Shown in pieces: positions 11,691 through 43,682 of a DNA stretch of 64,000 bases (within the stretch, counting starts at the first letter, position 1; every line of letters begins with the position of its first letter). Under the pieces are notes generated by a model that saw only the letters and a program-made list of their open reading frames with translations, was not told the DNA's origin and searched no databases. Source of the DNA: Escherichia coli (GTDB lineage Bacteria; Pseudomonadota; Gammaproteobacteria; Enterobacterales; Enterobacteriaceae). The position numbers were made by a program, and so were the translations under genes. The stretch lies in NCBI RefSeq assembly GCF_050320075.1, contig NZ_CP190019.1; one strand, given 5' to 3'.

Positions 11691-11722
11691 TTAGTGTATG
11701 ATGGTGTTTTTGAGGTGCTCCA

Positions 11723-26300: not shown

Positions 26301-27161
26301 GCCAGCGGCAAACATATTGATGAACTACTGGCGACAGAAGGCACTGAGCACCTCGGGTCCTCTTCGGTCCTCCCTGTCACCGGTGCACTGCATCTTGATG
26401 AGGTCACGTTCAGTTATCCCGACAGTCACGAGCCAGCTCTGAACAAACTTACCCTGACGATCCCAGAGGGAATGGTTGTCGCGGTCGTCGGTCGCAGCGG
26501 TGCGGGTAAGTCGACGCTGATTAAGCTGATTGCCGGGTTGTATTTCCCCACGCACGGCAACATCAGAATCGGTGTGCAAATGCTCGATGATGCCTCGCTC
26601 ACTGAGTATCGTCGCCAGATTGGGCTTGTCGATCAGGATGTAGCACTGTTTAGTAGTGATATTGCAGAAAACATTCGTTATTCACGGCCATCCGCCACCA
26701 ATGAAGACGTTGAAATTGCCTCACAGCGGGCAGGGCTGTATGAGATGGTGTGCAATCTGCCGCAGGGATTCCGGACACCGGTGAATAACGGCGGAGCCGA
26801 TCTGCCCGCAGGTCAGCGCCAGTTGATTGCGCTGGCCCGCGCGCAACTGGCGAATGCCCACATCCTGCTGCTCGACGAAGCCACGTCATGTCTGGATCGC
26901 ACATCCGAAGAACGACTGATGTCATCGTTAACAGATGTCGTGCATGCCGGGAAGCACTCGGCGCTGATTGTTGCACATCGTCTGACCACCGCGCAACGCT
27001 GCGATCTGATTGCCGTTATTGATAAGGGGTTACTTGCGGAATACGGAACCCACGAACAGCTGTTATCTGCGGGCGGCCTCTATACCCGCTTATGGCATGA
27101 CAGCGTCAGCAGTACTGCGCTCCATCGCCAGCACAACATGAAGGAGGAAACCCCGGGATAG
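23376..27161 (+). CDS. iroC: IroC, ABC exporter (fused TMD-NBD x2); true start probably at Met 23502
   Basis: Two Walker A boxes (GASGSGKST, GRSGAGKST) and two ABC signatures (LSGGQRQR, LPAGQRQ). Confidence 0.9.
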   Translation: MIIICQHPSRSHASITMRDRSVLAFLRNDPASGSYFTDGGGLMPANHTPTPAQSWIVRLARVCWERKKLSVIVVVASVSTILLAALTPLLTRQAVNDALAGNPARLPWLACGLLLIAFFDFIGNYVRRGYAGMLSLWVQHTLRGRVFDSIQKLDGAGQDALRTGQVISRTNSDLQQVHTLLQMCPVPLAVFTYYIAGIAVMLWMSPAMTLIVVCVLVCLAITALRARRRVFAQTGLASDQLANLTEHIREVLAQISVVKSCVAEMRETHWLDRQSRQIVRVRIGAVISQAMPGATMLALPVLGQIVLLCYGGWSVMHGRIDLGTFVAFASFLAMLTGPTRVLASFLVIAQRTQASVERVFALIDTRSQMEDGTESINSQVVGLELENMSFDYHHGDRHILSNISFSLRAGETVAVVGASGSGKSTLLMLLARFYDPCSGKIWLNTSEGRQNLRDIRLEALRRRVGIVFEDAFLFAGTVAENIAYGHPQATADDIRRAAAAAGASDFINALPKGFDSLLTERGTNLSGGQRQRIALARALITAPDVLILDDTTSAVDAVTEAEINTALGRYADEGHMLLVIARRRSTLQLASRVVVLDKGRMVDTGTPAELEARCPAFRALMTGDSDFLATSHNSHNELWPAEPATQDDVTDTGDKGFVARMTRVPENAVQQALAGKGRKVTSLLKPVAWMFVIAALLIALDSAAGVGVLILLQHGIDSGVATGDMSIIGLCALLALCLVIVGWCSYSLQTVFAARAAESVQHSVRLRSFGHMLRLGLPWHEKHADSRLTRMTVDVDSLARFLQNGLAGAATSLVTMFAIAATMFWLDPFLALTALSAVPVAALATMIYRRLSTPAYAQARLEIGKVNSTLQEKVSGLRVVQSHGQQELEGARLRALSERFRATRVRAQKYLAVYFPFLTFCTEASYAAVLLVGASQVAAGEMTAGVLAAFFLLLGQFYGPVQQLSGIVDAWQQATASGKHIDELLATEGTEHLGSSSVLPVTGALHLDEVTFSYPDSHEPALNKLTLTIPEGMVVAVVGRSGAGKSTLIKLIAGLYFPTHGNIRIGVQMLDDASLTEYRRQIGLVDQDVALFSSDIAENIRYSRPSATNEDVEIASQRAGLYEMVCNLPQGFRTPVNNGGADLPAGQRQLIALARAQLANAHILLLDEATSCLDRTSEERLMSSLTDVVHAGKHSALIVAHRLTTAQRCDLIAVIDKGLLAEYGTHEQLLSAGGLYTRLWHDSVSSTALHRQHNMKEETPG

Positions 27162-27264
27162 TTACTGGACACGTAATGTATTAAAAACACAGTCAGAAGC
27201 GGCGGTACCGTGAATAGCCGCTTTAATTATTTATACTGACATCCTTAATTTTTAAAGAGTATGA

Positions 27265-28494
27265 ATGCTGAACATGCAACAACATCCCTCTGCTATCGCC
27301 AGCCTGCGCAACCAACTGGCAGCGGGCCACATTGCTAACCTTACTGACTTCTGGCGCGAAGCTGAGTCGCTGAATGTTCCTCTTGTGACGCCAGTCGAAG
27401 GAGCGGAAGATGAGCGAGAAGTGACCTTTCTGTGGCGCGCCCGACATCCTCTGCAGGGCGTTTATCTGCGTCTGAACCGGGTGACGGATAAAGAGCACGT
27501 AGAAAAAGGAATGATGAGCGCCCTTCCCGAAACGGATATCTGGACACTGACACTGCGTTTACCCGCAAGTTACTGCGGCTCCTATTCGCTGCTGGAAATC
27601 CCCCCCGGCACTACGGCTGAGACGATTGCACTGTCCGGAGGCCGTTTTGCCACCCTTGCCGGAAAGGCCGATCCGCTAAACAAAATGCCGGAGATCAACG
27701 TTCGGGGAAACGCAAAGGAATCAGTGCTGACACTTGATAAAGCTCCCGCCCTGTCGGAATGGAACGGCGGCTTCCACACCGGACAACTGCTTACCTCCAT
27801 GCGCATTATCGCCGGGAAATCTCGCCAGGTTCGGCTCTATATTCCGGATGTTGATATTTCTCAGCCCCTCGGGCTGGTCGTGCTGCCCGATGGTGAAACC
27901 TGGTTTGATCACCTTGGCGTATGCGCGGCAATTGACGCCGCCATAAATAATGGGCGCATCGTGCCCGTGGCTGTACTGGGCATTGACAACATTAATGAAC
28001 ATGAACGCACTGAGATACTCGGCGGGCGCAGCAAACTGATAAAGGATATCGCCGGACATCTGCTGCCGATGATTCGCGCTGAACAACCGCAGCGTCAGTG
28101 GGCAGACCGTTCGCGCACAGTGCTGGCCGGGCAGAGCCTCGGCGGGATCAGTGCGCTAATGGGGGCTCGTTACGCACCGGAAACGTTCGGTCTGGTGCTC
28201 AGCCACTCTCCTTCAATGTGGTGGACGCCAGAAAGAACCAGTCGACCAGGCTTGTTCAGCGAAACCGATACCTCATGGGTGAGTGAGCATCTGCTTTCTG
28301 CCCCACCGCAGGGCGTACGTATCAGCCTGTGCGTGGGATCGCTGGAAGGTTCGACAGTGCCTCACGTTCAGCAGCTTCACCAGCGGCTGATTACCGCTGG
28401 CGTCGAAAGCCATTGCGCAATCTACACCGGTGGTCACGATTACGCATGGTGGCGCGGTGCACTGATTGACGGGATTGGTTTACTACAGGGTTGA
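27265..28494 (+). CDS. iroD: IroD, salmochelin esterase
   Basis: 409-aa esterase with GQSLGG serine motif; iro synteny. Confidence 0.9.
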   Translation: MLNMQQHPSAIASLRNQLAAGHIANLTDFWREAESLNVPLVTPVEGAEDEREVTFLWRARHPLQGVYLRLNRVTDKEHVEKGMMSALPETDIWTLTLRLPASYCGSYSLLEIPPGTTAETIALSGGRFATLAGKADPLNKMPEINVRGNAKESVLTLDKAPALSEWNGGFHTGQLLTSMRIIAGKSRQVRLYIPDVDISQPLGLVVLPDGETWFDHLGVCAAIDAAINNGRIVPVAVLGIDNINEHERTEILGGRSKLIKDIAGHLLPMIRAEQPQRQWADRSRTVLAGQSLGGISALMGARYAPETFGLVLSHSPSMWWTPERTSRPGLFSETDTSWVSEHLLSAPPQGVRISLCVGSLEGSTVPHVQQLHQRLITAGVESHCAIYTGGHDYAWWRGALIDGIGLLQG

Positions 28495-28578
28495 GTTGAC
28501 CCACAAACACTTTCAGGAAACGGTACAGACTTCCTGAATAAATCAAATAGTCACCTGCGGAAAAGGAATAATCATCAG

Positions 28579-29535
28579 ATGTATGCCCGCGAGTATCGCT
28601 CAACACGCCCGCATAAAGCGATTTTCTTTCATCTTTCTTGCCTCACCCTTATCTGTAGTGCGCAAGTTTATGCGAAGCCGGATATGCGGCCACTGGGGCC
28701 GAATATAGCCGATAAAGGCTCCGTGTTTTACCATTTCAGCGTCACCTCTTTCGACTCTGTCGATGGCACACGCCATTATCGGGTATGGACGGCCGTGCCG
28801 AATACAACCGCACCGGCATCGGGTTACCCGATTTTATATATGCTTGACGGTAACGCAGTTATGGATCGCCTGGATGACGAACTGCTCAAACAATTGTCAG
28901 AAAAAACACCGCCAGTGATCGTGGCTGTCGGGTATCAGACCAACCTCCCTTTCGATCTCAACAGCAGGGCTTACGACTATACGCCAGCAGCAAAAAGCAG
29001 AAAAACAGATCTCCACTCAGGGCATTTTAGCCGTAAGAGTGGTGGCAGCAACAACTTCCGCCAGTTACTGGAAACGCGTATTGCCCCAAAAGTGGAACAG
29101 GGACTGAATATCGATCGGCAACGCCGCGGCTTATGGGGGCACTCCTACGGCGGCCTCTTCGTGCTGGATTCCTGGCTGTCCTCCTCTTACTTCCGGTCGT
29201 ACTACAGCGCCAGCCCGTCGTTGGGCAGAGGTTATGATGCTTTGCTAAGCCGCGTTACGGCGGTTGAGCCTCTGCAATTCTGCGCCAAACACCTGGCGAT
29301 AATGGAAGGCTCGGCGACACAGGGTGATAACCGGGAAACGCATGCTGTCGGGGTGCTGTCGAAAATTCATACCACCCTCACTATACTGAAAGATAAAGGC
29401 GTCAATGCCGTATTTTGGGATTTCCCCAACCTAGGACACGGGCCGATGTTCAATGCCTCCTTTCGCCAGGCACTGTTAGATATCAGTGGTGAAAACGCAA
29501 ATTACACAGCAGGTTGTCATGAGTTAAGCCACTAA
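28579..29535 (+). CDS. iroE: IroE, periplasmic salmochelin hydrolase
   Basis: 318-aa ORF with signal sequence and GHSYGG motif; iro synteny. Confidence 0.85.
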   Translation: MYAREYRSTRPHKAIFFHLSCLTLICSAQVYAKPDMRPLGPNIADKGSVFYHFSVTSFDSVDGTRHYRVWTAVPNTTAPASGYPILYMLDGNAVMDRLDDELLKQLSEKTPPVIVAVGYQTNLPFDLNSRAYDYTPAAKSRKTDLHSGHFSRKSGGSNNFRQLLETRIAPKVEQGLNIDRQRRGLWGHSYGGLFVLDSWLSSSYFRSYYSASPSLGRGYDALLSRVTAVEPLQFCAKHLAIMEGSATQGDNRETHAVGVLSKIHTTLTILKDKGVNAVFWDFPNLGHGPMFNASFRQALLDISGENANYTAGCHELSH

Positions 29536-29579
29536 ACACTGCCCGCTTTTACGCGGGCAGTACGCCTGAAACACTACGA

Positions 29580-31757
29580 TCAGAATGATGCGGTAACTCC
29601 GGCATAGTAAGCCCGGCCTGGCTCGTTATAGGTATTCGCCCCTTCAGAAGATCGGAAGATCTGTTTATTGAGGATATTACTGACGCCGACATTAAGACGC
29701 AGATTTTTATTAATATCGTAATTGAAGTTCGTCCCCACCAGTGAATAAGCGCCCAGCTCTTTACCTGACAGACCGCCAGTATCTTCACTGCGGGTTTCCG
29801 CATGAGTACGCGGTTTTTGTCTGCCATATAACGTCCAGTTGACGCTGGCAGAAAACGCCTGGGTGATGGTCCAGTTAAGCGAGTTATTGATAGTATATTT
29901 CGGGATGACCGACAGAGGATTACCGGTGTCTTTTTGCTCCGAAGTGATCATCCATGTGGCATTGGTATTCCAGTTCAGACGATCTTTCACCAGTGGGAAA
30001 GACATACTGGCTTCGATACCGTCCACCAGAGCTTTCCCGCCATTCTGCCACTTGAGGATATATGCGCCTGAAGCGGTTTGCCCGATAACGTTATCCCCGG
30101 CCACGATCTTATTCTGGTAATCATTGCGGAAGTAGGTCACACTTGCGTGGTAATCTTCCCAGGTGAACTCCAGCCCAATTTCTTTATTGACGCTGATTTC
30201 CGGATCGAGATCTTTATTACCGATCAGGTAGCACCCGCCTGATGTAATATCTTTTGGACAGCCATTGCCTTTCGAGTAGAGCAGATAGCCTTCACTGGAT
30301 TGATACAGGTTTGGGGCTTTAAAGGTTCGGGCAACCCCTGCTTTGACTTTGAAATAATCGCCCAATTCCTGCGAAAGATTCAGACTGGGGCTGAAGTTCC
30401 CGCCGGAGTCGCTGAGATAATCAAAGCGCAGGCCGGGAATGATATTCGTGCCAGGAACCGGCTCAATGTTATCTTCAATATACAGCGCACTGATTTGAGA
30501 ATGATTTTTACTGCTGCGATCCGCAGCAGAGCCAGAAATACCGCTGATATCACTGTCATTCACCGTCAGGCTGGTAGAGGAAGGATCATCGAGCTTATCG
30601 CGGTTCCACTCTGCACCAACGGTCAGCGTTTGATCAACCATCACATTCAAAGGAATATTAAGCTCGCCGCTGGTTCGCCAGGAACTCAGGCGATTGGTCG
30701 TAAACTTTTCACCCGCTAAAATACGCCCTTCACCACCGCCGGATAATCCTTCATTCATGCGGGTATTATTGGTTTTCTCGTAATAAACACCAAAGCGACT
30801 TTGTCCCCAGTCCCAGATACCATTATGCGTAATGCCATAATTCTGTCGGTACAGGCGGTTCGTCTCTTTGCCGGATTTTGCCAGGCTTTCGGTAACTGCA
30901 CTGGAAGAACTGTTTTGCGTATCGCCCGCATAGATATTCCCCTGGCGGCTATATCCGGCTTCGAAATCGAGAATCTGCTGCGGATTTAATTTCCACGAGA
31001 CAACGCCGTTAATATCTTTGTTACGTACCCCTTCATGCCCGGCTGCGTTTTTCGTACCGACCGGAGAATTAATATCCCAACTGTCAGCATCCGTTTTATT
31101 CAGGTTACCATACAAACGCGTGGTAAGAGCATTACCAGCCAGAGGCCCACTAAGGCTGAAATTGGCGCGACGCGTAGCGCCCTCATCGCTACTTTCCGGC
31201 TGATTGGTGTATAACGACAGCGAACCGTGCCAGTCGTTGGTGGGACGTTTGGTAATGATGTTCACCACCCCCCCGGCTGCCCCCGAACCGTAGCGCGCCG
31301 CCGCAGGGCCGCGGATCACTTCAATACGCTCAACCTGTTCCGGTGGCACCCAGTTGGTGTCACCGCGGGTATCACGCTCTCCACGCCAGCTATAACGCAC
31401 GGAGTTACGTGACGTCACCGGTACACCATCAATTAAAATTAAGGTGTTTTCCGGCCCCATACCACGAATATCGATCTGGCGGTTGTTACCGCGTGTGCCC
31501 GAGGCGCTATTGCCGGTAAGATTGACGCCAGGCATTTTACGAATAATATCTGAAAGGTCGTTTACCGGAGGGGTCTTTTTAATATCCTCGCTGGTAATAA
31601 CCGACACGCCCGGCTGCTGTTTTAATACCTGCTCAGCGGTGGCTTCCACCACCAGAGTCTCGTCATTATCATCGTCGGAGGATTTGGCTACTGATACCTG
31701 GCTATTCAACCCAACCAGGAGCACAGTTAGCGACCAGAGGATTTTGTTAATTCTCAT
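29580..31757 (-). CDS. iroN: IroN, TonB-dependent salmochelin receptor
   Basis: 725-aa ORF with signal peptide, TonB-box region and C-terminal aromatic residue (…AGVTASF). Confidence 0.9.
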   Translation of the reverse strand: MRINKILWSLTVLLVGLNSQVSVAKSSDDDNDETLVVEATAEQVLKQQPGVSVITSEDIKKTPPVNDLSDIIRKMPGVNLTGNSASGTRGNNRQIDIRGMGPENTLILIDGVPVTSRNSVRYSWRGERDTRGDTNWVPPEQVERIEVIRGPAAARYGSGAAGGVVNIITKRPTNDWHGSLSLYTNQPESSDEGATRRANFSLSGPLAGNALTTRLYGNLNKTDADSWDINSPVGTKNAAGHEGVRNKDINGVVSWKLNPQQILDFEAGYSRQGNIYAGDTQNSSSSAVTESLAKSGKETNRLYRQNYGITHNGIWDWGQSRFGVYYEKTNNTRMNEGLSGGGEGRILAGEKFTTNRLSSWRTSGELNIPLNVMVDQTLTVGAEWNRDKLDDPSSTSLTVNDSDISGISGSAADRSSKNHSQISALYIEDNIEPVPGTNIIPGLRFDYLSDSGGNFSPSLNLSQELGDYFKVKAGVARTFKAPNLYQSSEGYLLYSKGNGCPKDITSGGCYLIGNKDLDPEISVNKEIGLEFTWEDYHASVTYFRNDYQNKIVAGDNVIGQTASGAYILKWQNGGKALVDGIEASMSFPLVKDRLNWNTNATWMITSEQKDTGNPLSVIPKYTINNSLNWTITQAFSASVNWTLYGRQKPRTHAETRSEDTGGLSGKELGAYSLVGTNFNYDINKNLRLNVGVSNILNKQIFRSSEGANTYNEPGRAYYAGVTASF

Positions 31758-31991
31758 ACCTATTCCCTAATAAATGCCTAACTTAAAATGTTTGATCGTT
31801 AAGCTCACATCCTTGCCAGATATTTTTTACTGCCATTATTGTTTTTATATAAGAATGATAATTAATATCATTTAGCAAAAAAAAAGCAATCCCTCACAAG
31901 ATAAATATATTGATTTTTCATAAATATCAAATTGATGGTGATGCTGCCAACTTACTGATTTAGTGTATGATGGTGTTTTTGAGGTGCTCCA

Positions 31992-32267
31992 GTGGCTTCT
32001 GTTTCTATCAGCTGTCCCTCCTGTTCAGCTACTGACGGAGTGGTGCGTAACGGCAAAAGCACCGCCGGACATCAGCGCTATCTCTGCTCTCACTGCCGTA
32101 AAACATGGCAACTGCAGTTCACTTACACCGCTTCTCAACCCGGTACGCACCAGAAAATCATTGATATGGCCATGAATGGCGTTGGATGCCGGGCAACCGC
32201 CCGCATTATGGGCGTTGGCCTCAACACGATTTTCCGCCATTTAAAAAACTCAGGCCGCAGTCGGTAA
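31992..32267 (+). CDS. insA: IS1 InsA (copy 2)
   Basis: 91-aa ORF. Confidence 0.85.
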
Positions 32268-32689
32268 CCTCGCGCATACAGCCGGGCAGTGACGTCATCG
32301 TCTGCGCGGAAATGGACGAACAGTGGGGATACGTCGGGGCTAAATCGCGCCAGCGCTGGCTGTTTTACGCGTATGACAGGCTCCGGAAGACGGTTGTTGC
32401 GCACGTATTCGGTGAACGCACTATGGCGACGCTGGGGCGTCTTATGAGCCTGCTGTCACCCTTTGACGTGGTGATATGGATGACGGATGGCTGGCCGCTG
32501 TATGAATCCCGCCTGAAGGGAAAGCTGCACGTAATCAGCAAGCGATATACGCAGCGAATTGAGCGGCATAACCTGAATCTGAGGCAGCACCTGGCACGGC
32601 TGGGACGGAAGTCGCTGTCGTTTTCAAAATCGGTGGAGCTGCATGACAAAGTCATCGGGCATTATCTGAACATAAAACACTATCAATAA
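32186..32689 (+). CDS. insB: IS1 InsB frame (copy 2)
   Basis: 167-aa ORF. Confidence 0.8.
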
Positions 32690-32704
32690 GTTGGAGTCAT
32701 TACC

Positions 32705-32903
32705 AACCGGATGGAGACATTGCAGGATTAGGTTTGTGAGTGGATGCATAGTCATATATTGCACCTCCAGCCACACCCCCAGCAGCTGCTCCAATTCCTC
32801 CTGCAACAAATTGTCCGGATAGTGTTCCTATAGCCATCGCAATATCACGCCCTGAAGCACCACCAGAAACAGAATCTAATTCATTTAGAGTCAGAGTTCT
32901 CAT
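32705..32903 (-). pseudogene. cvaC: Colicin V precursor gene cvaC, 3'-truncated by IS1
   Basis: MRTLTLNELDSVSGGASGRDIAMAIGTLSGQFVAGGIGAAAGGVAGGAIYDYASTHKPNPAMSPSG then reading frame runs into the IS1 end; double-glycine leader intact, about 37 C-terminal residues missing. Confidence 0.85.
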
Positions 32904-33117
32904 ATGATCTCCTTTTTATCTTATCGGATATTGAATAATAATTATCACCAACAAAGTAACATATTGCAGACATTAATATAGAGAAGCAAAATGTATGCAT
33001 GGATAAAAAGTCCTTTCCTCTAAAAACACAATCATATATAGCTAATGCAATATATATTGCGGTGGCATTTATTATAAATGCAAATAACAACTCTAATTTT
33101 GTTCTTTTTCTATCCAT
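32881..33117 (-). CDS. cvi: Colicin V immunity protein Cvi (78 aa)
   Basis: MDRKRTKLELLFAFIINATAIYIALAIYDCVFRGKDFLS… overlaps the cvaC start as in the native operon. Confidence 0.85.
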   Translation of the reverse strand: MDRKRTKLELLFAFIINATAIYIALAIYDCVFRGKDFLSMHTFCFSILMSAICYFVGDNYYSISDKIKRRSYENSDSK

Positions 33118-33163
33118 TACTTTTTATCCCATTACTTTCTATCCCATTACCATACAAACACTA

Positions 33164-33182
33164 ACGATAATGATTATCGTTC
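33164..33182. promoter_or_regulatory. Fur box in cvi-cvaC promoter region
   Basis: Palindrome AACGATAATGATTATCGTT about 50 bp upstream of the cvi start; ColV expression is known to be Fur-regulated. Confidence 0.55.
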
Positions 33183-33580
33183 ACATAGTCAAGAGTGAAG
33201 GGGAGGGGGCCCTCACCCCCTATAAGGGGTCCGCTTGGAAAACGGATTTCCCCACGTCAAGAGAATTGAGTTGAACGAGTGGTTACATCCAAGCCAGCTA
33301 ACTCACTGAACGTAAAGTATGTACGAAATGCTCCTACCGTCCGATAACCATTTGGCTTACTTCCGTACATTCCCTTGCGTAGATGTTCAGAATTGTACGA
33401 TTTCGGACACCAAAACCGCTGTTGTCCCGCCATTCTGGCGATTCCTGAAAGTCATTTGACTAAAAAATAGTCTTAACGTGGTTTATTTTCCGAATTCCAA
33501 GCGGCCCGCCCTACATTTATACAATGTCCGGCAGGGCATAAAAGGGGCGAAAGAAAATACCTGGGCGAAGTCGCTGAACA

Positions 33581-33862
33581 TCATTCTGGCGATTTCAATA
33601 AAGGTACTTGCTCACGCTCTGTCATTTTCTGAAACTCTTCATGCTGCATTTCGATTTTCCTTCTAAGATCATAACTCGCATACCTGTTCTTTTTATGTAT
33701 ATCTATATCTATTTTTGTGACGAGTTCAAACCACAATGTTCGCACTCCCCATGCAGCGTTATGAAACATTTCCGCAACGGCTATAGAGTCTGTATTAACT
33801 GCTTCAGTCATGTAGTCGCTAATACGTTCAGCGGTAATTTTCGTTATTTCATCGTAATTCAT
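33581..33862 (-). CDS. Hypothetical protein (93 aa)
   Basis: ORF only; no recognisable motif. Confidence 0.3.
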
Positions 33863-34046
33863 TTTATCTCCTACAAGATTATTTAATGGAATGCAAAATA
33901 TCTGGCCTGATAATAATGTTCCAGAATTAATATCTGCAGGCTATGTTAAGTTGTCCCCACACACAATCTACCTGTTTTCTCGTGTGTGCCACAGGAGCAA
34001 TACATAAATAGTCTGGCCATTAAGTTCGTAACCAGCTGCTGTAGAT

Positions 34047-34202
34047 CTTAGTTTGTTTTCTTTGACATTAGGCTCGGCCCTTATAGCCTTTGGTCTTCCG
34101 GCCACAGTTGTTGGTTTTGTTGGCGTAGTTATTGCAGGTGCTATTGGTGCATTTATCGATGATAAATTTGTTGATGAGTTGAATCACAAGATCATAAAAT
34201 AA
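34047..34202 (+). pseudogene. cba: Colicin B gene remnant (3' end only, pore-forming domain C-terminus)
   Basis: In-frame translation …SLFSLTLGSALIAFGLPATVVGFVGVVIAGAIGAFIDDKFVDELNHKIIK* resembles the C-terminus of pore-forming colicins (A/B type); no start codon; sits where cba should end, just before convergent cbi. Confidence 0.7.
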
Positions 34203-34219
34203 TTAAAAGGAAGGCAGTG

Positions 34220-34747
34220 TTACTGCCTCCCTTTAAAATATTTAATGACAAGCAATGGCATCAGTAAAATCGCATATGTCATGGTTAAAACAGTAAAGTA
34301 AATGGAGCAGTATAAAATAAAAAGAGTGATGACATTATGAGATAATAATTTAAAAAAACCACCTGCTGTTGTTAGTTCCAGATTATAGAACAGTGTGATA
34401 TAAATCAGAATGGCATAAAAAACGGCCCCCCAGAAACAGGATTGCACAACAAGTTTTCTTGTTACTGGCTTTATGATTTCTCTTGTCTTATATGTGCAAA
34501 GAAAAACGAGAATACCCATAACTGGTGCTGTCTTGTTGTAGTTTGACATAAGTGCTGTCATGACGGGATCATGCAATGATGTAATAGAAGGGAGAAATGC
34601 AACCTTATTATATAAGTAGTACAGCACTTGAGAATATGGATTATTTATCCGAAGTATTAATATAGCCATTAATGGAATAATACCGATTATGGAAAATGCA
34701 TATAATATTTCGTTTGCTTTCTTGTTCTTATCTTTATTGCTGGTCAT
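34220..34747 (-). CDS. cbi: Colicin B immunity protein Cbi (175 aa from internal Met)
   Basis: Multi-pass membrane protein MTSNKDKNKKANEILYAFSIIGIIPLMAILIL…; convergent with the cba remnant. Confidence 0.7.
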   Translation of the reverse strand: MTSNKDKNKKANEILYAFSIIGIIPLMAILILRINNPYSQVLYYLYNKVAFLPSITSLHDPVMTALMSNYNKTAPVMGILVFLCTYKTREIIKPVTRKLVVQSCFWGAVFYAILIYITLFYNLELTTAGGFFKLLSHNVITLFILYCSIYFTVLTMTYAILLMPLLVIKYFKGRQ

Positions 34748-34990
34748 ATATATACCTTTTTGTATTTTTATATATAGATTATATATCAGAGTTCTCAATA
34801 TATTTCCAGTATTTAATGGAGTGTACAGATATATATCTTATATATGGTAGTTCAGGTGCTTCCCTACCATTTTTAACGGCATATCCGGCAAACAATGTTA
34901 TGGGGAGCCTCTCTCATGGGGTTCGTTCGCCGGTGTAAGCGTTAGCCAGCCGCGAACTCTATTATCTTATTAACTTATAAGGAGTTATGT

Positions 34991-35806
34991 ATGGAAACCT
35001 TAACTGTTCATGCACCATCACCATCAACTAACTTACCAAGTTATGGCAATGGTGCATTTTCTCTTTCAGCACCGCATGTTCCTGGTGCTGGACCTCTTTT
35101 AGTCCAGGTTGTTTATAGTTTTTTCCAGAGTCCAAACATGTGTCTTCAGGCTTTAACTCAACTTGAGGATTACATCAAAAAACATGGGGCTAGCAACCCT
35201 CTCACATTGCAGATCATATCGACAAATATTGGTTACTTCTGTAACGCCGACCGAAATCTGGTTCTTCACCCTGGAATAAGCGTTTATGACGCTTACCACT
35301 TCTCAAAACCAGCGCCAAGTCAATATGACTATCGCTCAATGAATATGAAACAAATGAGCGGTAATGTCACTACACCAATTGTGGCGCTTGCTCACTATTT
35401 ATGGGGTAATGGCGCTGAAAGGAGCGTTAATATCGCCAACATTGGTCTTAAAATTTCCCCTATGAAAATTAATCAGATAAAAGACATTATAAAATCTGGT
35501 GTAGTAGGTACATTCCCTGTTTCTACAAAGTTCACACATGCCACTGGTGATTATAATGTTATTACCGGTGCATATCTTGGTAATATCACACTGAAAACAG
35601 AAGGTACTTTAACTATCTCTGCCAATGGCTCCTGGACTTACAATGGCGTTGTTCGTTCATATGATGATAAATACGATTTTAACGCCAGCACTCACCGTGG
35701 CGTCATCGGAGAGTCGCTCACAAGGCTCGGGGCGATGTTTTCTGGTAAAGAGTACCAGATACTGCTTCCTGGTGAAATTCACATTAAAGAAAGTGGTAAG
35801 CGATAA
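34991..35806 (+). CDS. cma: Colicin M (271 aa)
   Basis: METLTVHAPSPSTNLPSYGNGAFSLSAPHVPGAGPLLVQVVYSFFQ… matches colicin M as recalled, full length. Confidence 0.9.
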   Translation: METLTVHAPSPSTNLPSYGNGAFSLSAPHVPGAGPLLVQVVYSFFQSPNMCLQALTQLEDYIKKHGASNPLTLQIISTNIGYFCNADRNLVLHPGISVYDAYHFSKPAPSQYDYRSMNMKQMSGNVTTPIVALAHYLWGNGAERSVNIANIGLKISPMKINQIKDIIKSGVVGTFPVSTKFTHATGDYNVITGAYLGNITLKTEGTLTISANGSWTYNGVVRSYDDKYDFNASTHRGVIGESLTRLGAMFSGKEYQILLPGEIHIKESGKR

Positions 35807-35855
35807 TATAAGGGCCGGGATTCCGGCCTTTTTATGCAGCCTTTATAACAGTGTA

Positions 35856-36209
35856 TTAGTCATTCGCATATTCAACATATCCCTCTTCACAATGGTACAT
35901 GCCATAATACATTCTCTTACCCTCCGGACCTTCAGCTTTAAATGGGACAAGAAGTGTTTTTTCATCTTCAACATCTGTTAAACTTCTCTCAATCTTTTCC
36001 CATGTAATTTTCGGGATTTCTGTACCAAGAAGTTGTACATCGTTGTCCCAGCGTTTCATTCTTTGCAGGTAATCATTTTTTACAAACGTTCTGGCCTGTT
36101 CATCGCTGACCTGATAGCATGCCGGACCTTTATCTTCAGACCAGAAAAAAACAGCAGCAAGAGCAATAATCGTTAAAATAAAAATAAATTTCATGCTAAT
36201 TACTTTCAT
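35856..36209 (-). CDS. cmi: Colicin M immunity protein Cmi (117 aa from Met MKVISMK…)
   Basis: MKVISMKFIFILTIIALAAVFFWSEDKGPACYQ…; convergent with cma. Confidence 0.8.
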   Translation of the reverse strand: MKVISMKFIFILTIIALAAVFFWSEDKGPACYQVSDEQARTFVKNDYLQRMKRWDNDVQLLGTEIPKITWEKIERSLTDVEDEKTLLVPFKAEGPEGKRMYYGMYHCEEGYVEYAND

Positions 36210-36386
36210 AAAATCTCCACAACTTCTGTCGTTCATTCGATATAAAAAAACATTACGAATATATCCGTACAATGTGAGCATACTGTGAAGTGGCTTTAAC
36301 AATTATGAAATAATACAAGAGATCACATATTGCAGTGGTCTCTTCTTTTATAGAATAAATCACAATTCATAATTATGATTTGTGAC

Positions 36387-37178
36387 TTATGCGTGTCTGT
36401 TTTTCAGCATTGTGACAGCATCGGACTCAGGAATCGAAAACTGCACCCGGTGCCGTGCAGCCACATCCAGCGCAAACACCTTCGTGTACACCTCTGTCGA
36501 ACTAATCGACTTGTGCCCCATCAGGCTCTGCAGCACCTTCAGCGGAATACCAGCATACAGCATATGCATCGCGTAGGAATGGCGGAAAGTATGTGGGGTA
36601 ACCGGAACAGAGAACGTCACGCCGTCGGCCGCAGCGGCCTCTACAGCTTCATTCAGCCAGGTGCGAACTGTGCGGTCGGTGATTCCCCAGATGCGCGCCT
36701 TCTCCATTCTTCCGGTTCGTTTGTTTCTGCGCTCCAGTGGGATTTTCAGCGTGGCCACCATCATCTGCAGTTGGCTGACGTATTGTGTATCGGACAGGGG
36801 AACCAGGCGATGCACCTGACTGCCAGCAGGGACACGGCCTGCCGTTCTGGTCGCTTTTTCAGTCCGTTGTTTGAGCGTGGCCAGCTGTACGAACGGATAT
36901 GGCGGCGCCAGAGAAAAATCTCCCCGCGTCAGCGCCAGCGCTTCGTTTATACGTGCGCCCGTGTTCCACAGGGTGGCCAGCAACATTTTGCGGTGCAGAT
37001 CCGGTACATAGTGGAGCAGGGCGCTGATCTCCGGCGCCAACAGATATTTTGGTAATTCGTCCTGCACAAGTGCCATCTGACGTAGTGCCAGCGCAGCCGG
37101 GTAATCAATGGCAACAGGTAATGTTGCCGGAGGCGTTAAAAAAGAACCAGGCAGGGAAAGCAATTGTGGGCCACTCAT
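36387..37178 (-). CDS. Tyrosine site-specific recombinase (ResD/XerD-like), 263 aa
   Basis: C-terminal catalytic region …HTFRHSYAMHMLYAGIPLKVLQSLMGHKSISSTEVYTKV…; paralogous to int at 1263..2003. Confidence 0.8.
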   Translation of the reverse strand: MSGPQLLSLPGSFLTPPATLPVAIDYPAALALRQMALVQDELPKYLLAPEISALLHYVPDLHRKMLLATLWNTGARINEALALTRGDFSLAPPYPFVQLATLKQRTEKATRTAGRVPAGSQVHRLVPLSDTQYVSQLQMMVATLKIPLERRNKRTGRMEKARIWGITDRTVRTWLNEAVEAAAADGVTFSVPVTPHTFRHSYAMHMLYAGIPLKVLQSLMGHKSISSTEVYTKVFALDVAARHRVQFSIPESDAVTMLKNRHA

Positions 37179-37864
37179 GATGTCCCCTTTATGAAATCCT
37201 CAATCTCTTGCTCGGTCTTTTTAGACTTCTTTACCATTTCGTACTCCTTTTGGAGTGTTTTACCTCTGGCTTTCAACAATACCAACCTCGTTGGCGATAG
37301 TGTATCGGAAAGGCCGTGCAGAGGGAGGCCACATAACATTCTCAGTTCTCGTGATAACCGCAGTGCTTTTACTCCCAACATAGCTGCGTTTTTATGCAAA
37401 CTATATTCACCCGCTCCACCATAAGGAGTATCTTCAACAAACACATTATCTACACACACGACAGCTTCGTAGCTGAGAACAGAGAGTTCGCTGAGCCTAT
37501 ACATCAGGCCAGAAGGAAGGGAGCGCCAGTTACCAGATACCGGGGAATAATCGATTTCCGGTAATAAGAACTCAGCTTCTCCTCTGCCATCCTGATCGTG
37601 CTCCACAGTTGCTGTTGCTGCTGGAGCGCAACGCTGCGCAAATCGCTCAAGTAAAAAAACCAGCTCTGTACTAATGTAAAGACGCTCGCTGGCCAGCTTC
37701 GCTGCTGCAGTTCTCTCCTCACGTCTGAGTGTGAAGTGGTGAGTAAGGAACACCGCTCCGACAGCAGATGCGATGGTCGATACAGCTGTAATTATCTGCG
37801 GCCCCAGACTGGCGCTGTCCTTCACCACCTTCACGCCTTCGGTCGCAATAAACCAGTCAGCCAT
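37175..37864 (-). CDS. Hypothetical membrane-anchored protein (229 aa)
   Basis: N-terminal hydrophobic helix (IITAVSTIASAVGAVFLTHHF); stop overlaps recombinase start (ATGA). Confidence 0.5.
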   Translation of the reverse strand: MADWFIATEGVKVVKDSASLGPQIITAVSTIASAVGAVFLTHHFTLRREERTAAAKLASERLYISTELVFLLERFAQRCAPAATATVEHDQDGRGEAEFLLPEIDYSPVSGNWRSLPSGLMYRLSELSVLSYEAVVCVDNVFVEDTPYGGAGEYSLHKNAAMLGVKALRLSRELRMLCGLPLHGLSDTLSPTRLVLLKARGKTLQKEYEMVKKSKKTEQEIEDFIKGTS

Positions 37865-37907
37865 GTTTATTCCTTTATTGTTGAGAAATCCCGCCTTCTG
37901 TATGTAT

Positions 37908-38258
37908 TCAGCGGTCGGCAGCCAGTTCTTCAGCCAGCTTCACAAAGCCTTTGTGCTCAGTCTGCAGGTAATGGCTGTAAATCCGGGCATCACGTTCTGT
38001 GAGCCCGGATGGATTGCCGGTGAAGTAACGTTGCAGCACCGCAATACAGTGATTGTAGGTATCGAGATCATATTCCCAGTTTCCCAGCTCACCGGCCGCA
38101 TCCAGCTCCCGGCGAAACTGCTCGTATTTACGGAGCAGAATGCCAAGACCTAATTCTGTTGCAGCATAAACATTATTTTCTCCTGGCGCGGAAATCGCAT
38201 TACGGATTTTTTCAAAAGCATAACTGAAATCATTTCTCTCATTGAATGCAGTAAACAT
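37908..38258 (-). CDS. Hypothetical protein (116 aa)
   Basis: ORF 44 bp upstream of the 229-aa gene, same strand. Confidence 0.45.
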   Translation of the reverse strand: MFTAFNERNDFSYAFEKIRNAISAPGENNVYAATELGLGILLRKYEQFRRELDAAGELGNWEYDLDTYNHCIAVLQRYFTGNPSGLTERDARIYSHYLQTEHKGFVKLAEELAADR

Positions 38259-38437
38259 GTCCTTTCCTCAGTTGAATAGTTAGCCGTGCAATTTTACCAC
38301 ACCTCAATCATCGCCAGATGAGTGCCACTCTGTTGAGAACAGTGACTTTCACAAAAAATGAATTTCACATACTGAAATAATAAGTAGCCATATAGAAACG
38401 CAGTTAAATTACCGGAGAGCCGTTTCCGTCAGATCCG

Positions 38438-38466
38438 ACTTTCCGGAATATCACAACTTTCCGGAA
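38438..38466. promoter_or_regulatory. Two copies of palindromic octamer TTCCGGAA (within ACTTTCCGGAA direct repeats)
   Basis: ACTTTCCGGAA at 38438-38448 and 38456-38466, about 180 bp upstream of the 116-aa gene. Confidence 0.3.
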
Positions 38467-38710
38467 GTGTACCACGCTGAGAAAATAATCATATCGCTGT
38501 TTTCCGCCCCTGCGCGGCGCATCACAGGTCAGGGAGATGACACAACATATAGTGTCATGAGCAGCTGAATGAGATACCACATGTTGTGCTGACAGGAGGT
38601 GGCGTTGTGTGGGGGGAGAGGAAGATCCGTAACCAGGAGTTTTCGGATCTTCCTGAAGAAAAAGAAAGATTAATGTAAAATTAACAATAATTAACAGCCA
38701 TTGATAACTA

Positions 38711-38789: not shown

Positions 38790-41700
38790 TCAGTCATAAA
38801 ACTCAACATCACGGACATAGCGTACGGGAGTAATAACAATTTTGTGTTCATCACGCCCTGACCCCATTTTTGGCGGCTGAATAAATCCAAGATTGCTGAT
38901 TAATTCGGCCACTTCCCACAAATCCACGGAGTGAGGGATTTTCCTGAACCTGTCATGTGGTAACAGTCCATGATAGCTCTCATCAGCAAAACTGTTCAGC
39001 ACCACGCAAAGCGCGTCTTTGCCAGCATCCCCGGCAACCAGACAACGTTTAAGCAGTGTCAGGCGCAGATCATCGTCACCCATCCAGGGACTCAGTTCTG
39101 CCAGAATATCTAATGACAGCAGGTAGCTCTTATCAAGAATTCCCGGTTTGTTATCACGCAACCAGCGTAAAGCGGCAACTTTTATATTCATACCGATTAG
39201 CTTGTGACGAAAAAGTTCGCTTGCCAGTTCTTCATCAAAGTCACCCTCGATATAAAAAATATCTTCTGGCTCCTGGGTAATAATCTCAGGACGCTGGGCA
39301 ATAAGGTTACCAAGCAGAGTATTCATCCTGTTAATATCATCAACATTTCCACAGAGAGCATTAAACAACACCGTAAAGACATTAACTGTCGGTGCCAGTT
39401 TTTTCTCTGAACATAACAGTTCAGCATTTCGCAATGGAATGTTTTCAGGCACATCGATAATAACAACGTTTAAATTACTCAGTACTTTCAGTAAAGCTTC
39501 TTCTGAAATGACTGGCGAGCAAATTAATTCAGAAATAAAATTATTAAATATTCCTGTATCATTTATGACTATATCAGATGGTTCAAATTCAAAGTGTTTC
39601 TCATTTACCCACTGAACAAGTTCACCGGAAGTATTAATTGATGTATCATGCAATAAATGAATAATATTATCAAAGGATGGAAAAATCCTGTCATGCTGCA
39701 ACAGCATGCTATAGATATTTCTCCCTGAAGCATTATTGTCCGCACACTCTGAACGATTAATAATATCATCCAGATTATTTATACAAAAATCCATTTTGGC
39801 TATAATCTGTTCAACAACAGTCATTGAGACTTCAGAAGAATTCAGCAATTCAGGAATACGATCAATCTCTTCCGATTCAATAAATACCGATAAAATAAAA
39901 TCTTCTATGTTAGTCCACAGAACTTCTGTTAATTCAGAAATAGCCAGGGACTCGAGACAATGAAACGGATAAAGAGAGAATGACATTCTTTCTTCATTCT
40001 TGTCTTGCGTCAGGCAAAGATAAACATTTTTAAGATTACTGACGGAATATTTGAATAATCCTGCACCCGCAATTTTCCTGATAACAGAACACTTCTCGTC
40101 TCCCACATCACCTGGAATATATGAAACTGAAAGTGTATTATCTTTCAACACTTCAAAAAACGCATCACCATATCCTTTTGGCACAGCAGTAATAAGAATT
40201 GGGGAGGAATCTATAAGTTCACCGATACGTTTATTAATCTCAACCGATTGCCAGATATTTGATTTTTCAGTCAGGCATAACAGGTGTGCCGCTATTTCCT
40301 GAACAAAAAACTTTTGCTCGGGTGTGCGTTCTTCTGACGCACATAAATGTGCCAGCAATCTGTTCAGTATATGTTCATCTGACATAAAAATCTCCAGGTA
40401 ACGCAGGCGAACATACGTTGTGAAATCGTTCTGCATCAACATCAGCAAACTAACCACACGCTGGCTACCCGTCTGACTCAGTAATGCCATTATATTGTTT
40501 TTCAGGGTATCAGGGTCATTATCAATCAGCCATCTGATAACAGCAGGATGTTGAGCATTGTCACGCTGCAGAACCCCCAGCTTTTTGAGTCGTTCAACAA
40601 TATTATTAACGTTATCAAGATGGAATGAGAATGTTTTTTCCGGACCTTTACCAGACATAACATCCTTAAGAAATAAATTATCTGTCTCACTCAGCCCTCC
40701 GGGAATGAAGATTGAGCGATAGGACATGTAATCTGTTGATAAATAACCACTTGATAACAGAAAAAATATAAAGTCAATCTGTTCATGTTCCGACTGAATC
40801 GTCAGGACACCTGTATCCTCTTTCTTCTTTATCCAGGCAACAAAGCCTTCATTTGTCATCTTTTCTGCTATATCAGCTACAGTTCCGGAAAGAATTTCGG
40901 TCCTCAATGACTCCAGACTGGAAATATTATTTTTCACTCTGGTTATATTATCAACAGATTTAGTTTCAATTAAATGGCATCGTTTTTCATACTGCTGCTT
41001 CAGTTTTTCTGTATCCCGCTGATTTATCATGAGAAAAATTTGTCTGTTATAGGGGGTAACGACCTGAATATTTTCCTTATCTAAAAGCATGAGAAATTCA
41101 TCTTCATCTTGTATCAAATCATCAAGACTTATTTGCCTTCCTTCTGTATAAAAAACAAGCGCGCCGCTATAATTTTTACTAAGGTAAGGCATGAGCAGTT
41201 CTTCGCGCAGATTTTCCCGGTTTGCGAGTTTTTCATTTGTTATCGCTACAAGTGACTGTGCCATATCCTCAAGTTCGTTATTTGCAGAATGTAATAATTC
41301 ATTCTGAATTTCATGGTCTAAGTAGCTTTGAATAAAATGATAAAGAACACCTTTTTTACTATCTATACCATGATAATCTTCCGCACAGAGATTTTTATAT
41401 GCTATCATGGCAAGTAGTTTGGCCAGATTTTCCCGACTATTGACTAAATTCTGATAGAGTCGAAACTCATTTGTAATATTATGCATTACACGCATATTGG
41501 GAATAAATGTCGCAATACGAGAAATACATTCGCTTAAGTTATTATTTATCTCTTCTTCTTTGAATTTTTTAACAAAATGCTCATAAGCATTCTGGTTATC
41601 CATCACTGGAATAACAGGCATAACAAAATCAAAGAATTTCGTTCTTGACTCTGCTGAGTTGAAAATACCATCTCTGACAGCATAAATAAATTTTACAGGT

Positions 41701-42611
41701 TTTCTGTCAGAAAGGCAGTTATTAATAATTTGATTGATTTCCCGCAATTTCACGAAAATCCGGCCATTGTTAAAACGGTCAAGATCTTCGAATATCACTA
41801 CATCATATTTAGTCGAATCAAAAAAATAGACAATTTCATCAATATAGACATTAAGTAAAGAAGGTGATGATGCCCGGGTTGTAACAGCGCCTTTCAGAAG
41901 GTCCACTTTATCAAGACTTACTTTCCTGTCAAATATACCGATACGATGTAACTGGTTCAAAAGCAGGCATAACGATCCCATCACAGATGCCACTGCACCG
42001 GACACACGCACCCCAAACGGGCATTCAAGAAGGTAACGGGCGAATGCTCCCGGCAAAGATAGCTTTGTTGTAACGTAATCCGGCGCAAGGAAAAATAAAG
42101 CAGCTCCACTCAGTAAAATGGTTCCTGTCAGAAAAGACGCAGACCGCAATATTTGTCCCGCAGTCACATCTGATATACGGTCAATGCGGGAACAGGGAAG
42201 CTCATGCTTTTTATTTTTGTAGAGTATTTGTTGCAGAATACTGTATTCAATAGATTTTTCAACACTACCAGTATTTTTCGTCCCTTCGTCACTACTGCTG
42301 TCCCCATTACTTTCATCCACATGTCTCTGCATATCAAAATCAGCAAGAGAAACGGTTAACACCCGCAGTGTCCCATTGTGAGCTTTGCACCATGTTTTTA
42401 ATACTGAGCTTTTCCCTGCCCCATACGGCCCGGTAACAGCAATATTCCGGATATCCGGATGTTCATAAGCATAATTAAGCGCGCTGATATAACAGCCTGC
42501 TTTATCTGAGTCGAGTTCTGTCGGAGTCAGTGCTTCATAGCTCACTGCATTTGCCTCAGCATGATCACTATCGGCAACGATCGGTGTCAGCCACGGTGTG
42601 GACATTATCAT
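38790..42611 (-). CDS. KAP-family P-loop NTPase with intra-domain transmembrane helices (1273 aa); function unknown
   Basis: Walker A NIAVTGPYGAGKSS; hydrophobic helices (FLTGTILLSGAALFFLAP, VRVSGAVASVMGSLCLLLNQL) inserted before Walker B-like YDVVIFEDLDRF; about 950-aa C-terminal region without assignable motif. Confidence 0.65.
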   Translation of the reverse strand: MIMSTPWLTPIVADSDHAEANAVSYEALTPTELDSDKAGCYISALNYAYEHPDIRNIAVTGPYGAGKSSVLKTWCKAHNGTLRVLTVSLADFDMQRHVDESNGDSSSDEGTKNTGSVEKSIEYSILQQILYKNKKHELPCSRIDRISDVTAGQILRSASFLTGTILLSGAALFFLAPDYVTTKLSLPGAFARYLLECPFGVRVSGAVASVMGSLCLLLNQLHRIGIFDRKVSLDKVDLLKGAVTTRASSPSLLNVYIDEIVYFFDSTKYDVVIFEDLDRFNNGRIFVKLREINQIINNCLSDRKPVKFIYAVRDGIFNSAESRTKFFDFVMPVIPVMDNQNAYEHFVKKFKEEEINNNLSECISRIATFIPNMRVMHNITNEFRLYQNLVNSRENLAKLLAMIAYKNLCAEDYHGIDSKKGVLYHFIQSYLDHEIQNELLHSANNELEDMAQSLVAITNEKLANRENLREELLMPYLSKNYSGALVFYTEGRQISLDDLIQDEDEFLMLLDKENIQVVTPYNRQIFLMINQRDTEKLKQQYEKRCHLIETKSVDNITRVKNNISSLESLRTEILSGTVADIAEKMTNEGFVAWIKKKEDTGVLTIQSEHEQIDFIFFLLSSGYLSTDYMSYRSIFIPGGLSETDNLFLKDVMSGKGPEKTFSFHLDNVNNIVERLKKLGVLQRDNAQHPAVIRWLIDNDPDTLKNNIMALLSQTGSQRVVSLLMLMQNDFTTYVRLRYLEIFMSDEHILNRLLAHLCASEERTPEQKFFVQEIAAHLLCLTEKSNIWQSVEINKRIGELIDSSPILITAVPKGYGDAFFEVLKDNTLSVSYIPGDVGDEKCSVIRKIAGAGLFKYSVSNLKNVYLCLTQDKNEERMSFSLYPFHCLESLAISELTEVLWTNIEDFILSVFIESEEIDRIPELLNSSEVSMTVVEQIIAKMDFCINNLDDIINRSECADNNASGRNIYSMLLQHDRIFPSFDNIIHLLHDTSINTSGELVQWVNEKHFEFEPSDIVINDTGIFNNFISELICSPVISEEALLKVLSNLNVVIIDVPENIPLRNAELLCSEKKLAPTVNVFTVLFNALCGNVDDINRMNTLLGNLIAQRPEIITQEPEDIFYIEGDFDEELASELFRHKLIGMNIKVAALRWLRDNKPGILDKSYLLSLDILAELSPWMGDDDLRLTLLKRCLVAGDAGKDALCVVLNSFADESYHGLLPHDRFRKIPHSVDLWEVAELISNLGFIQPPKMGSGRDEHKIVITPVRYVRDVEFYD

Positions 42612-43033
42612 TGATACAATTCCGTTGTTGTTTTAGTTACATTTTACTGGTTTTATTCCGCTTTTATCTCAAGCATGGATCTCTGAATTTCTTAACTTAA
42701 CCAGACGAGAAGAAAGCAGGCAAAGGCAACCGTACTTACCTGAAGAGACGACTGTGATAGCATAAATCGATTTTTAAGACGATAATTTTCCTCTTACCGT
42801 ACGTTTTCGTACGGTTGGCCCTCAAACCCCTATCAGGCCTGCCGTGGAGATTTTGTGGTGCGTCTCGACGGCAGCACCTGTCTGCAGTTATGGAATAAAG
42901 AAGGCAGAGTGGTACGCCGGGAGGGCGATCCGCTGGAAGTGGCGCAGTGGCTGCAGGCCTGTCATGATGCCGGAATAGAAGTTCGTGTACAGGTTAATGA
43001 AAGCGTCACTCCGTAAAAACATGCCAGCACGGT

Positions 43034-43381
43034 TTACACATCATCCCATGATGGCAGCCGCTTAACTTTCCTGCGCCACCAGTGGAAAGAGGCCATGAGC
43101 AGTCCGAACAAAAAACCCCCCGTGATACTTATAATAATGGCCTCACCTGCCACCATTCCTGACGGCCCCCAGTAGATAAACCACATTGCACATCCCCAGG
43201 AAATGCCCCATAAGCCCCCCGTCAGCACCGTGACCTGCCAGAACGGCATAAAGGGTAATGGCGGAAGCCGGATACCCAGCCGCCAGAGAATACGCAGAAG
43301 AGGAGGGGCATAATTGCTCCGCCACATCTTTTTGCTGTCCATCAGGGCAATGGCCCGGGCTTTTTTCTGCTCAAAGGTCAC
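43034..43381 (-). CDS. Hypothetical small membrane protein (115 aa)
   Basis: Two hydrophobic Trp-rich segments (VTVLTGGLWGISWGCAMWFIYWGPSG; IIISITGGFLFGLLMASFHWW). Confidence 0.45.
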   Translation of the reverse strand: MTFEQKKARAIALMDSKKMWRSNYAPPLLRILWRLGIRLPPLPFMPFWQVTVLTGGLWGISWGCAMWFIYWGPSGMVAGEAIIISITGGFLFGLLMASFHWWRRKVKRLPSWDDV

Positions 43382-43655: not shown

Positions 43656-43682
43656 GATGAAGGAAAAGAATAACAATGGCAG

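Follow-up and report, generated by a model that had tools for sequence, protein, structure and literature searches.

What is still made by a bacteriocin locus in which immunity genes are complete and toxin and export genes are degraded? This question is raised by positions 32705-36209 of a 64,000-nucleotide stretch of Escherichia coli DNA (contig NZ_CP190019.1, assembly GCF_050320075.1; the whole stretch is called the window). The genes concerned belong to microcin V (the ColV operon, with cvaA, cvaB, cvaC and cvi), colicin B (cba and cbi) and colicin M (cma and cmi). The original prediction, made from the sequence, had stated that the immunity genes are kept and that toxin or export functions are lost, which agrees with the structure mapped here: cvi, cbi and cmi are intact, cvaC and cba are cut, and cvaA and cvaB are gone. 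Alignment to ColV and ColBM references, the check that it had proposed, mapped the junctions and confirmed the decay, and realignment revealed no complete cba or cvaABC in the window or elsewhere on an identical plasmid. The arrangement is real and had been read correctly. It is also already published and very common, which had been missed. Most probably, the locus is the mosaic bacteriocin region already known from IncF virulence plasmids of the ColV/ColBM type, in a branch that underwent one more IS1-associated deletion; this assessment covers the locus together with the two-step origin and the functional state proposed below.

Truncated microcin V and colicin B genes lie beside intact immunity genes

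The 3' truncation point of cvaC is a complete IS1 of 768 bp (31937-32704, plus strand), annotated as IS1B-family transposase. Its flanks (...CAAATTGAT and AACCGGATG...) do not match, and the element is thus without a target-site duplication. The pseudogene cvaC' (32705-32903, minus strand) retains codons 1-66 and one nucleotide of codon 67, after which the frame enters IS1 and terminates (..SPSGW, stop). What is left encodes the microcin V leader and the N-terminal part of the mature peptide, with 66/66 residues identical to the 103-amino-acid reference CvaC and a Pfam MccV match over positions 1-68 of 104. A cut by IS1 after about codon 66 had been proposed and is confirmed, codons 67-103 being missing. 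The immunity gene cvi (32881-33117, minus strand; WP_014640552.1), which had been called intact, indeed encodes the full 78 amino acids, of which 77 are identical to Cvi of a ColV plasmid. Upstream of cvi, a consensus scan predicted the promoter-like site TTGACT-17-TATCGT (33164-33192, minus strand), which is overlapped by a Fur-box-like sequence at 33166-33184 (16/19 to GATAATGATAATCATTATC); alignment to the ColV reference shows that this region was retained from the ColV plasmid. Comparison of cvaA and cvaB with the window by blastn and tblastn turned up nothing at the DNA or protein level except a distant ABC-transporter similarity to iroC, and no match was obtained in the remaining 97 kb of the identical plasmid NZ_CP123241.1, so that their reported absence holds for the window and for the rest of that plasmid. 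Of a functional microcin V system, full-length cvaC, cvaA and cvaB are therefore missing and cvi with its upstream region is present.

A second IS1 copy is located at 11668-12435. It is 99.1% identical to the copy at 31937-32704, has the same orientation and likewise lacks a target-site duplication. If the two copies recombined, ∼20 kb including the iro genes would be lost.

Alignment to intact cba and to PDB 1RH1 delimited the colicin B remnant, cba', to 34033/34036-34202 on the plus strand. It consists of the final 167-170 nt including the stop codon, i.e., 54 complete codons for colicin B residues 458-511 of 511 (PDB 1RH1), which form C-terminal helices of the pore domain. The original prediction had described the last ∼50 codons at 34047-34202; that only a remnant is left stands, and the start had to be moved 11-14 nt further 5'. 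An in-frame TAA (34029-34031) shuts the frame just upstream of the remnant, and what is missing is the double SOS box and ∼1,366 nt from the 5' end of cba. Neither an SOS-box promoter nor a 511-codon cba, which together would make a functional colicin B operon, is thus present. RefSeq has a 'colicin-B' feature under the sequence of the remnant. The microcin V remains, cvi and cvaC', are found 0.9 kb from cba'. On the other side of cba', the immunity gene cbi (34220-34747, minus strand; WP_000203272.1; Pfam Colicin_im, 1.8e-63) is intact with 175 amino acids, four of which differ from the intact ColBM reference.

The colicin M pair is complete. The toxin gene cma (34991-35806, plus strand) encodes 271 amino acids with a Pfam Colicin_M match (3.8e-155) and a full-length match to PDB 2XMX/3DA4, and cmi (35856-36209, minus strand; WP_000864812.1; Pfam YebF-like) encodes 117 amino acids. 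Each differs from the intact ColBM reference by two residues, and the claim that cbi, cma and cmi are intact was borne out in all three cases. Both motifs of Cma are present, the N-terminal ETLTVHA, which we take to be the TonB box, and DDKYDFNASTHR at residues 225-236, presumably the catalytic region. Between the stop codons of cma and cmi lies a GC hairpin, GGCCGGgattCCGGCC (35813-35828), followed on the plus strand by TTTTTAT; it is a putative cma terminator, which the terminator scan places on the minus strand. NCBIfam gave no matches for CvaC', Cvi, Cbi, Cma or the cba remnant.

Comparison with related plasmids suggests a two-step origin

Relative to the intact ColV plasmid NZ_CP070151.1, positions 27001-31936 are colinear at 99.9% identity and positions 32705-33282 at 98.4%, and IS1 replaces 7,379 bp. 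The shared part at 98.4% identity comprises cvi, cvaC codons 1-66 and the region upstream of cvi, whereas the intact ColV operon additionally has cvaA, cvaB and cvaC codons 67-103. Relative to NZ_CP062867.1, positions 28495-31936 and 32705-38539 match at 99.9%, and IS1 occupies the position of 10,557 bp that contain DAHP synthase, DUF6404 and exonuclease genes, yacAB, cvaA, cvaB and cvaC codons 67-103. The order on that plasmid is iroN, DAHP synthase, DUF6404, exonuclease, yacAB, cvaA, cvaB, cvaC, cvi, filler, cba', cbi, cma, cmi and integrase, and the protein accessions of Cvi, Cbi, Cma, Cmi and the integrase are identical to those in the window. CP057844.1 has the same layout plus an extra IS421. 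Both relatives thus share with the window 99.9% identity on the two sides of IS1 and the same mosaic between cvi and cba', but have cvaA, cvaB and a full cvaC where the window has IS1 for 10.6 kb.

A complete IS1, the lack of a target-site duplication and flanks that are colinear with relatives carrying extra DNA together identify an IS1-associated deletion; the missing duplication fits either IS1-mediated adjacent deletion or IS1-IS1 recombination. Because the truncated-cba joint also exists beside a complete ColV operon, the IS1 event appears to be later than the truncation of cba. This suggests an order of two steps. In the first, a ColBM module (cba-cbi-cma-cmi-integrase), the cba of which had lost its SOS promoter and first ∼1,366 nt beforehand, would have lain next to cvi in a microcin V operon that was still complete. 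In the second, IS1 would have taken the place of the 10,557 bp, thereby removing cvaA, cvaB and the end of cvaC.

The same type of locus is known from other plasmids. Going by what PMC6795089, PMC7772137 and PMC2994835 relate of Christenson & Gordon 2009 (Microbiology 155:1645), the window resembles the type described in that study in its intact cbi with a short 3' remnant of cba, in its intact cma and cmi, and in the microcin V remains beside the truncated cba. The finding of truncated cba with microcin V remains next to it is credited to that study by PMC6795089. The cut of cvaC by IS1 at codon 66 is possibly one of the forms seen there. The plasmid pAPEC-O1-ColBM (NC_009837.1) carries the same 170-bp cba remnant with the same endpoint, is 99.9% identical over 33206-36704, has identical accessions for Cbi, Cma and Cmi and shows the same iro-DAHP synthase-DUF6404 neighborhood. 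It differs in what is left of microcin V: cvaA and 576 nt from the start of cvaB are kept there and cvaC and cvi are missing, the break being at window position 33206, whereas the window has cvi and cvaC codons 1-66 and lacks cvaA and cvaB. On pAPEC-O1-ColBM these features are found at positions 2503-2672 and 4651-6490 within NC_009837.1 100001-150000, and the break at 33206 coincides with the position of IS421 in CP057844.1.

Intact ColBM plasmids (e.g., NZ_CP066034.1, IncI-gamma/K1) have the same gene order and orientation as the window, with cba and cma on one strand and cbi, cmi and the integrase on the other, but contain a full 511-amino-acid cba, TTGACA with SOS boxes and a parM-side flank, all of which are absent from the window. 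Homology to the ColBM reference spans 34033-37118. The site-specific tyrosine integrase (36387-37178, minus strand), which travels with the ColBM module, was assigned by annotation and by NCBIfam tyrosine-recombinase matches below the family cut-offs.

The joint between cvi and cba' is formed by ∼750 bp of filler with at least three junctions. The filler segment at 33225-33507 gives partial matches to other plasmids, at ∼94%; ColV plasmids have only its first ∼58 bp, the ColV homology stopping inside at 33282. It starts with GGGGTCCGCTTGGAAAACGGATTTCCCCACGTCAAG, a candidate identified by eye that resembles a Tn3-family terminal inverted repeat, and the segment with this repeat may be a recombination point. 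An IncF-backbone fragment (33514-34032, minus strand) with a 97.9% match to CP060106.1 adjoins the cba remnant. According to the annotation of CP060106.1, it contains a hypothetical open reading frame of 93 amino acids (33581-33862) and, at 33968-34032, the final ∼65 nt of a toxin gene of the RelE/ParE family. A relE/parE gene directly upstream of intact cba was not seen in three plasmids with full-length cba, including NZ_AP027851.1; upstream of cba these have parM and a stability gene, and two of the three also have the hypothetical open reading frame. Because the three flanks carry partition genes, the truncation of cba is a recombination joint, and none of the arrangements found would yield it by simple internal deletion.

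The flank consisting of a DNA methylase gene, parM and the stability gene, which lies directly upstream of cba in intact ColBM, is present on NZ_CP123241.1 at a distance of ∼50 kb from the colicin region (94-97% identity; positions 19018-21487 of the extract 64001-113000). It is found there without the hypothetical open reading frame and the cba promoter that come next in the reference.

The truncated forms are common and toxin loss is recurrent

In PLSDB, 294 plasmids cover at least 80% of 33100-34900, the stretch from upstream of cvi over cba' to cbi. Matches to cba were found in 524 plasmids, of which 129 have the gene at full length; in an evenly spaced sample of the 524, 34 of 60 (corresponding to ∼300) have the last 167-170 bp of cba alone, always with the same endpoint. 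The relE'-cba' joint occurs in 308 of 5,426 complete E. coli genomes. Among 60 evenly spaced members of the 643 plasmids with cvaC-cvi, the IS1 joint at codon 66 was present in 12 (∼20%), cvaC was intact at codon 66 in 34 (∼57%), and other truncation points were seen in 14 (∼23%), most with cvi still annotated. Colicin M shows a comparable form of decay: ∼23% of the plasmids matching cma-cmi have only the last ∼150 nt of cma and cmi, with recurrent endpoints at query positions 946-958. Full-length cbi-cma-cmi blocks number ∼430 in PLSDB. Of 28 sampled plasmids with the cma allele of the window (at least 99.5% identity), 27 have the gene annotated as intact. From the decay forms of cvaC, cba and cma, it is therefore concluded that loss of the toxin with retention of immunity is recurrent for all three systems. 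Likewise, NZ_AP027851.1 (extract positions 8786-10546) has IS1 in place of cma and keeps cba, cbi and cmi.

A survey of orphan immunity genes on E. coli plasmids (PMC12546727) includes loss of the toxin beside a degraded toxin gene. The cvi and cbi genes of the window, which have no functional cognate toxin, resemble these orphans, but in the window the degraded toxin genes are still visible and the cma/cmi pair is intact.

Transcription of cma without the cba promoter

According to reviews, transcription of cma starts from the SOS promoter that precedes cba (PMC8469651), a dependence that is given as a presumption in PMC2994835; the original prediction agrees with this literature. In the promoter of the intact ColBM reference, the region 45-75 bp before the cba ATG holds TTGACA together with two SOS boxes that overlap, CTGTACATAAAACCAGTGTTTATATGTACAG. 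Its 31-bp double SOS box has no match in the window when three mismatches are allowed. A search of 33100-34990 for CTGT-N8-ACAG with at most one mismatch gave a single match, inside the cbi coding sequence, which upholds the statement that 34800-34990 contains no convincing LexA box. In the intact ColBM arrangement, read-through from cba into cma would have to cross a hairpin of 13 pairs (34206-34234, minus strand) that lies between the stop codons of cba and cbi, was found in a terminator scan and is predicted to be terminator-like for cbi. With permissive thresholds, Rfam found nothing in 32600-36500, so that no known RNA element explains cma expression.

The cbi-cma intergenic region (34748-34990) is retained, being 243 bp long as in an intact ColBM plasmid and identical to it at 237/243 positions. 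Mapping of the primers ColM-F and ColM-R (PMC2994835) to the window places a published cma-gfp fragment at 34789-35084 on the plus strand. In that study, a gfp fusion of the 298-bp cma upstream fragment from pCHAP1, in which the authors found no SOS box or consensus promoter, gave uniform low-level fluorescence (PMC2994835). Within the region covered by the fragment lies a putative degenerate LexA-like site, TTCTCAATATATTTCCAGTA (34792-34811), of the form CTC-N10-CAG with a G-to-C change in the core, just outside the range searched for the original prediction. Its ad hoc consensus score is 25, compared to 25-26 for the genuine cba SOS boxes, in a score that favors AT-rich sequence; only five sites of the window reach at least 24, and the site is also kept in the intact ColBM reference. 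LexA binding at 34792-34811 is doubtful on sequence grounds. At this site the AT run of the pCHAP1 primer ColM-F is 2 nt longer than that of the window, owing to an AT indel. On the cma strand, the highest-ranking sigma-70-like site is the candidate TTGACA-18-GATCAT (34543-34572, plus strand), antisense inside cbi and 419 nt upstream of the cma ATG, with a weight-matrix score of 9.8, in a window where 43 sites score at least 8. Candidates for a cryptic cma promoter are this site or a sequence within 34789-34990.

Further reports bear on the same point. Colicin M secretion without an SOS box is attributed to Christenson & Gordon 2009 in PMC7772137, and a colicin M locus that lacks colicin B and adjoins a truncated cvaC is described in PMC6723558. 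Whether colicin M is still made has largely been answered in print, in PMC2994835 and PMC7772137.

Functional state of the locus and alternative explanations

Taken together, these data would make the following state the most likely one. Microcin V can be neither completed nor exported by its own system and would not be made, because the peptide is truncated and the CvaAB exporter is gone; colicin B would not be made because 54 codons are left without a promoter or start. The host would be immune to microcin V, colicin B and colicin M, since cvi, cbi and cmi are intact together with their immediate upstream sequences. Colicin M alone would be made, from weak promoter activity upstream of cma that is probably independent of SOS, and at a low, roughly uniform level instead of an SOS-induced burst.

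An assembly artefact, in which contigs were misjoined via IS1 or repeated plasmid segments, could be suspected since IS1 is multi-copy (the second copy being that at 11668-12435) and the copy at 31937-32704 lacks a target-site duplication. Nevertheless, at least 80% of the 9-kb stretch around the locus is present in 143 or more complete plasmids that come from many laboratories, 25/25 among the matches listed being 100% identical; the IS1/cvaC joint recurs in the 12 of 60 sampled cvaC-cvi plasmids (∼130 of the 643), and the cba' joint contains no repeat. A misassembly is practically out of the question. It is far less implausible, albeit still unlikely, that cma is silent, in which case no toxin would be made and the locus would be a triple-immunity cassette (cvi, cbi, cmi) of an immune non-producer. 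This would agree with the presumption that cma needs the SOS boxes upstream of cba, with the lack of a LexA box and of a good sigma-70 consensus upstream of cma, with the frequent loss of toxins with immunity kept among related plasmids in all three systems and with the widespread occurrence of orphan immunity genes (PMC12546727). Low-level gfp expression from the cma upstream fragment, which maps to the retained region (PMC2994835), the secretion without an SOS box cited in PMC7772137, and a cma that is uninterrupted in 27 of 28 sampled plasmids with the allele of the window argue against it.

SOS inducibility might also persist, via the degenerate site at 34792-34811 or another damage-responsive promoter, so that loss of the cba promoter would matter little. 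The score of TTCTCAATATATTTCCAGTA, which equals that of the genuine cba boxes and is rare in the window, and its conservation in the intact ColBM reference could be taken in this sense. However, the site has the G-to-C change in its CTG core and three mismatches to CTGT-N8-ACAG, its score is inflated by the AT-rich center, the spacer of the LexA-like site is 2 nt longer in the pCHAP1 primer, and the site overlaps the likely cbi promoter on the opposite strand. Moreover, the pCHAP1 cma fragment was expressed uniformly, compared to heterogeneous expression of SOS-regulated colicin fusions, and the authors found no colicin regulatory motif in it (PMC2994835). Continued SOS induction is thus considered improbable, and less probable than a silent cma. 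A more far-reaching idea is that loss of the cba SOS promoter might have rewired colicin M from a weapon co-fired with colicin B in an SOS burst into a non-lytic toxin that is made constitutively at low level, with a cryptic promoter in or near the cbi-cma spacer. We regard this rewiring as speculative and rather unlikely.

Several points weigh against the proposed origin and functional state, with colicin M made at low level. No single ancestor was found that explains the filler between cvi and cba' as one deletion, the order of events is derived from extant plasmids, and the functional state of this plasmid is read from its sequence and from the literature. Consensus and weight-matrix scans gave no good sigma-70 consensus on the cma strand of the cbi-cma spacer, and the consensus promoter scan returned 11 sites, compared to 13.4 expected from shuffling, which is not above chance. 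The cma-gfp result was obtained with pCHAP1, a different replicon with at least a 2-nt indel relative to the window, and production of colicin M without cba is known second-hand, from papers that cite the original study. Finally, because the plasmids with truncated cba are nearly identical to one another, the intactness of cma says little about selection for its expression.

Plasmid identity and neighborhood

The 9 kb around the locus are 100% identical to many complete E. coli plasmids. One of these is the IncFIB/FIC plasmid NZ_CP123241.1 (pYZLc1-3_160k, from chicken faeces), which matches at 100% identity with the same coordinates as the window. To the left of the locus lie iroBCDE and iroN, and to the right the integrase, two hypothetical genes and an annotated anti-phage ATPase gene. 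This is the neighborhood of a ColV/ColBM-type virulence plasmid of extraintestinal pathogenic and avian pathogenic E. coli (ExPEC/APEC).

To the right of the integrase and the two hypothetical genes is a variable slot, occupied in the window by the gene for a 1273-amino-acid 'anti-phage transmembrane ATPase' (38790-42611) and in NZ_CP062867.1 by genes for an AAA ATPase and a UvrD helicase, followed by tsh. This slot beside the colicin module may be a hot spot for defense genes. Farther right, positions 42831-45530 contain DUF6404, a hypothetical gene, a 3'-5' exonuclease gene and the end of yacB; at 98.7%, they duplicate what precedes cvaA in NZ_CP062867.1, CP057844.1 and pAPEC-O1-ColBM. The colicin modules of the ColBM and ColV references are flanked by shorter versions of this segment, which may be a repeated recombination substrate.

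Implications

As a discovery, the locus carries little weight, given that the arrangement has been published and is present on hundreds of sequenced ExPEC/APEC virulence plasmids. The practical consequence lies in annotation and typing: on such plasmids, calls of cvaC, cvi, cbi or a cba 3' amplicon do not equate to production of microcin V or colicin B, and plasmids labeled 'ColBM', pAPEC-O1-ColBM included, carry only a 170-bp stub of cba.

If colicin M was indeed rewired, the altered regulation and an immunity to colicin B and microcin V that comes for free might be part of the reason why truncated cba outnumbers intact cba by ∼300 to 129 among sequenced plasmids; alternatively, the truncated form hitch-hikes on successful ExPEC/APEC virulence plasmids. 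The locus is a worked example of stepwise toxin loss with immunity kept, for which extant intermediates exist for each step, and as such it bears on models of competition between producer, immune and sensitive strains.

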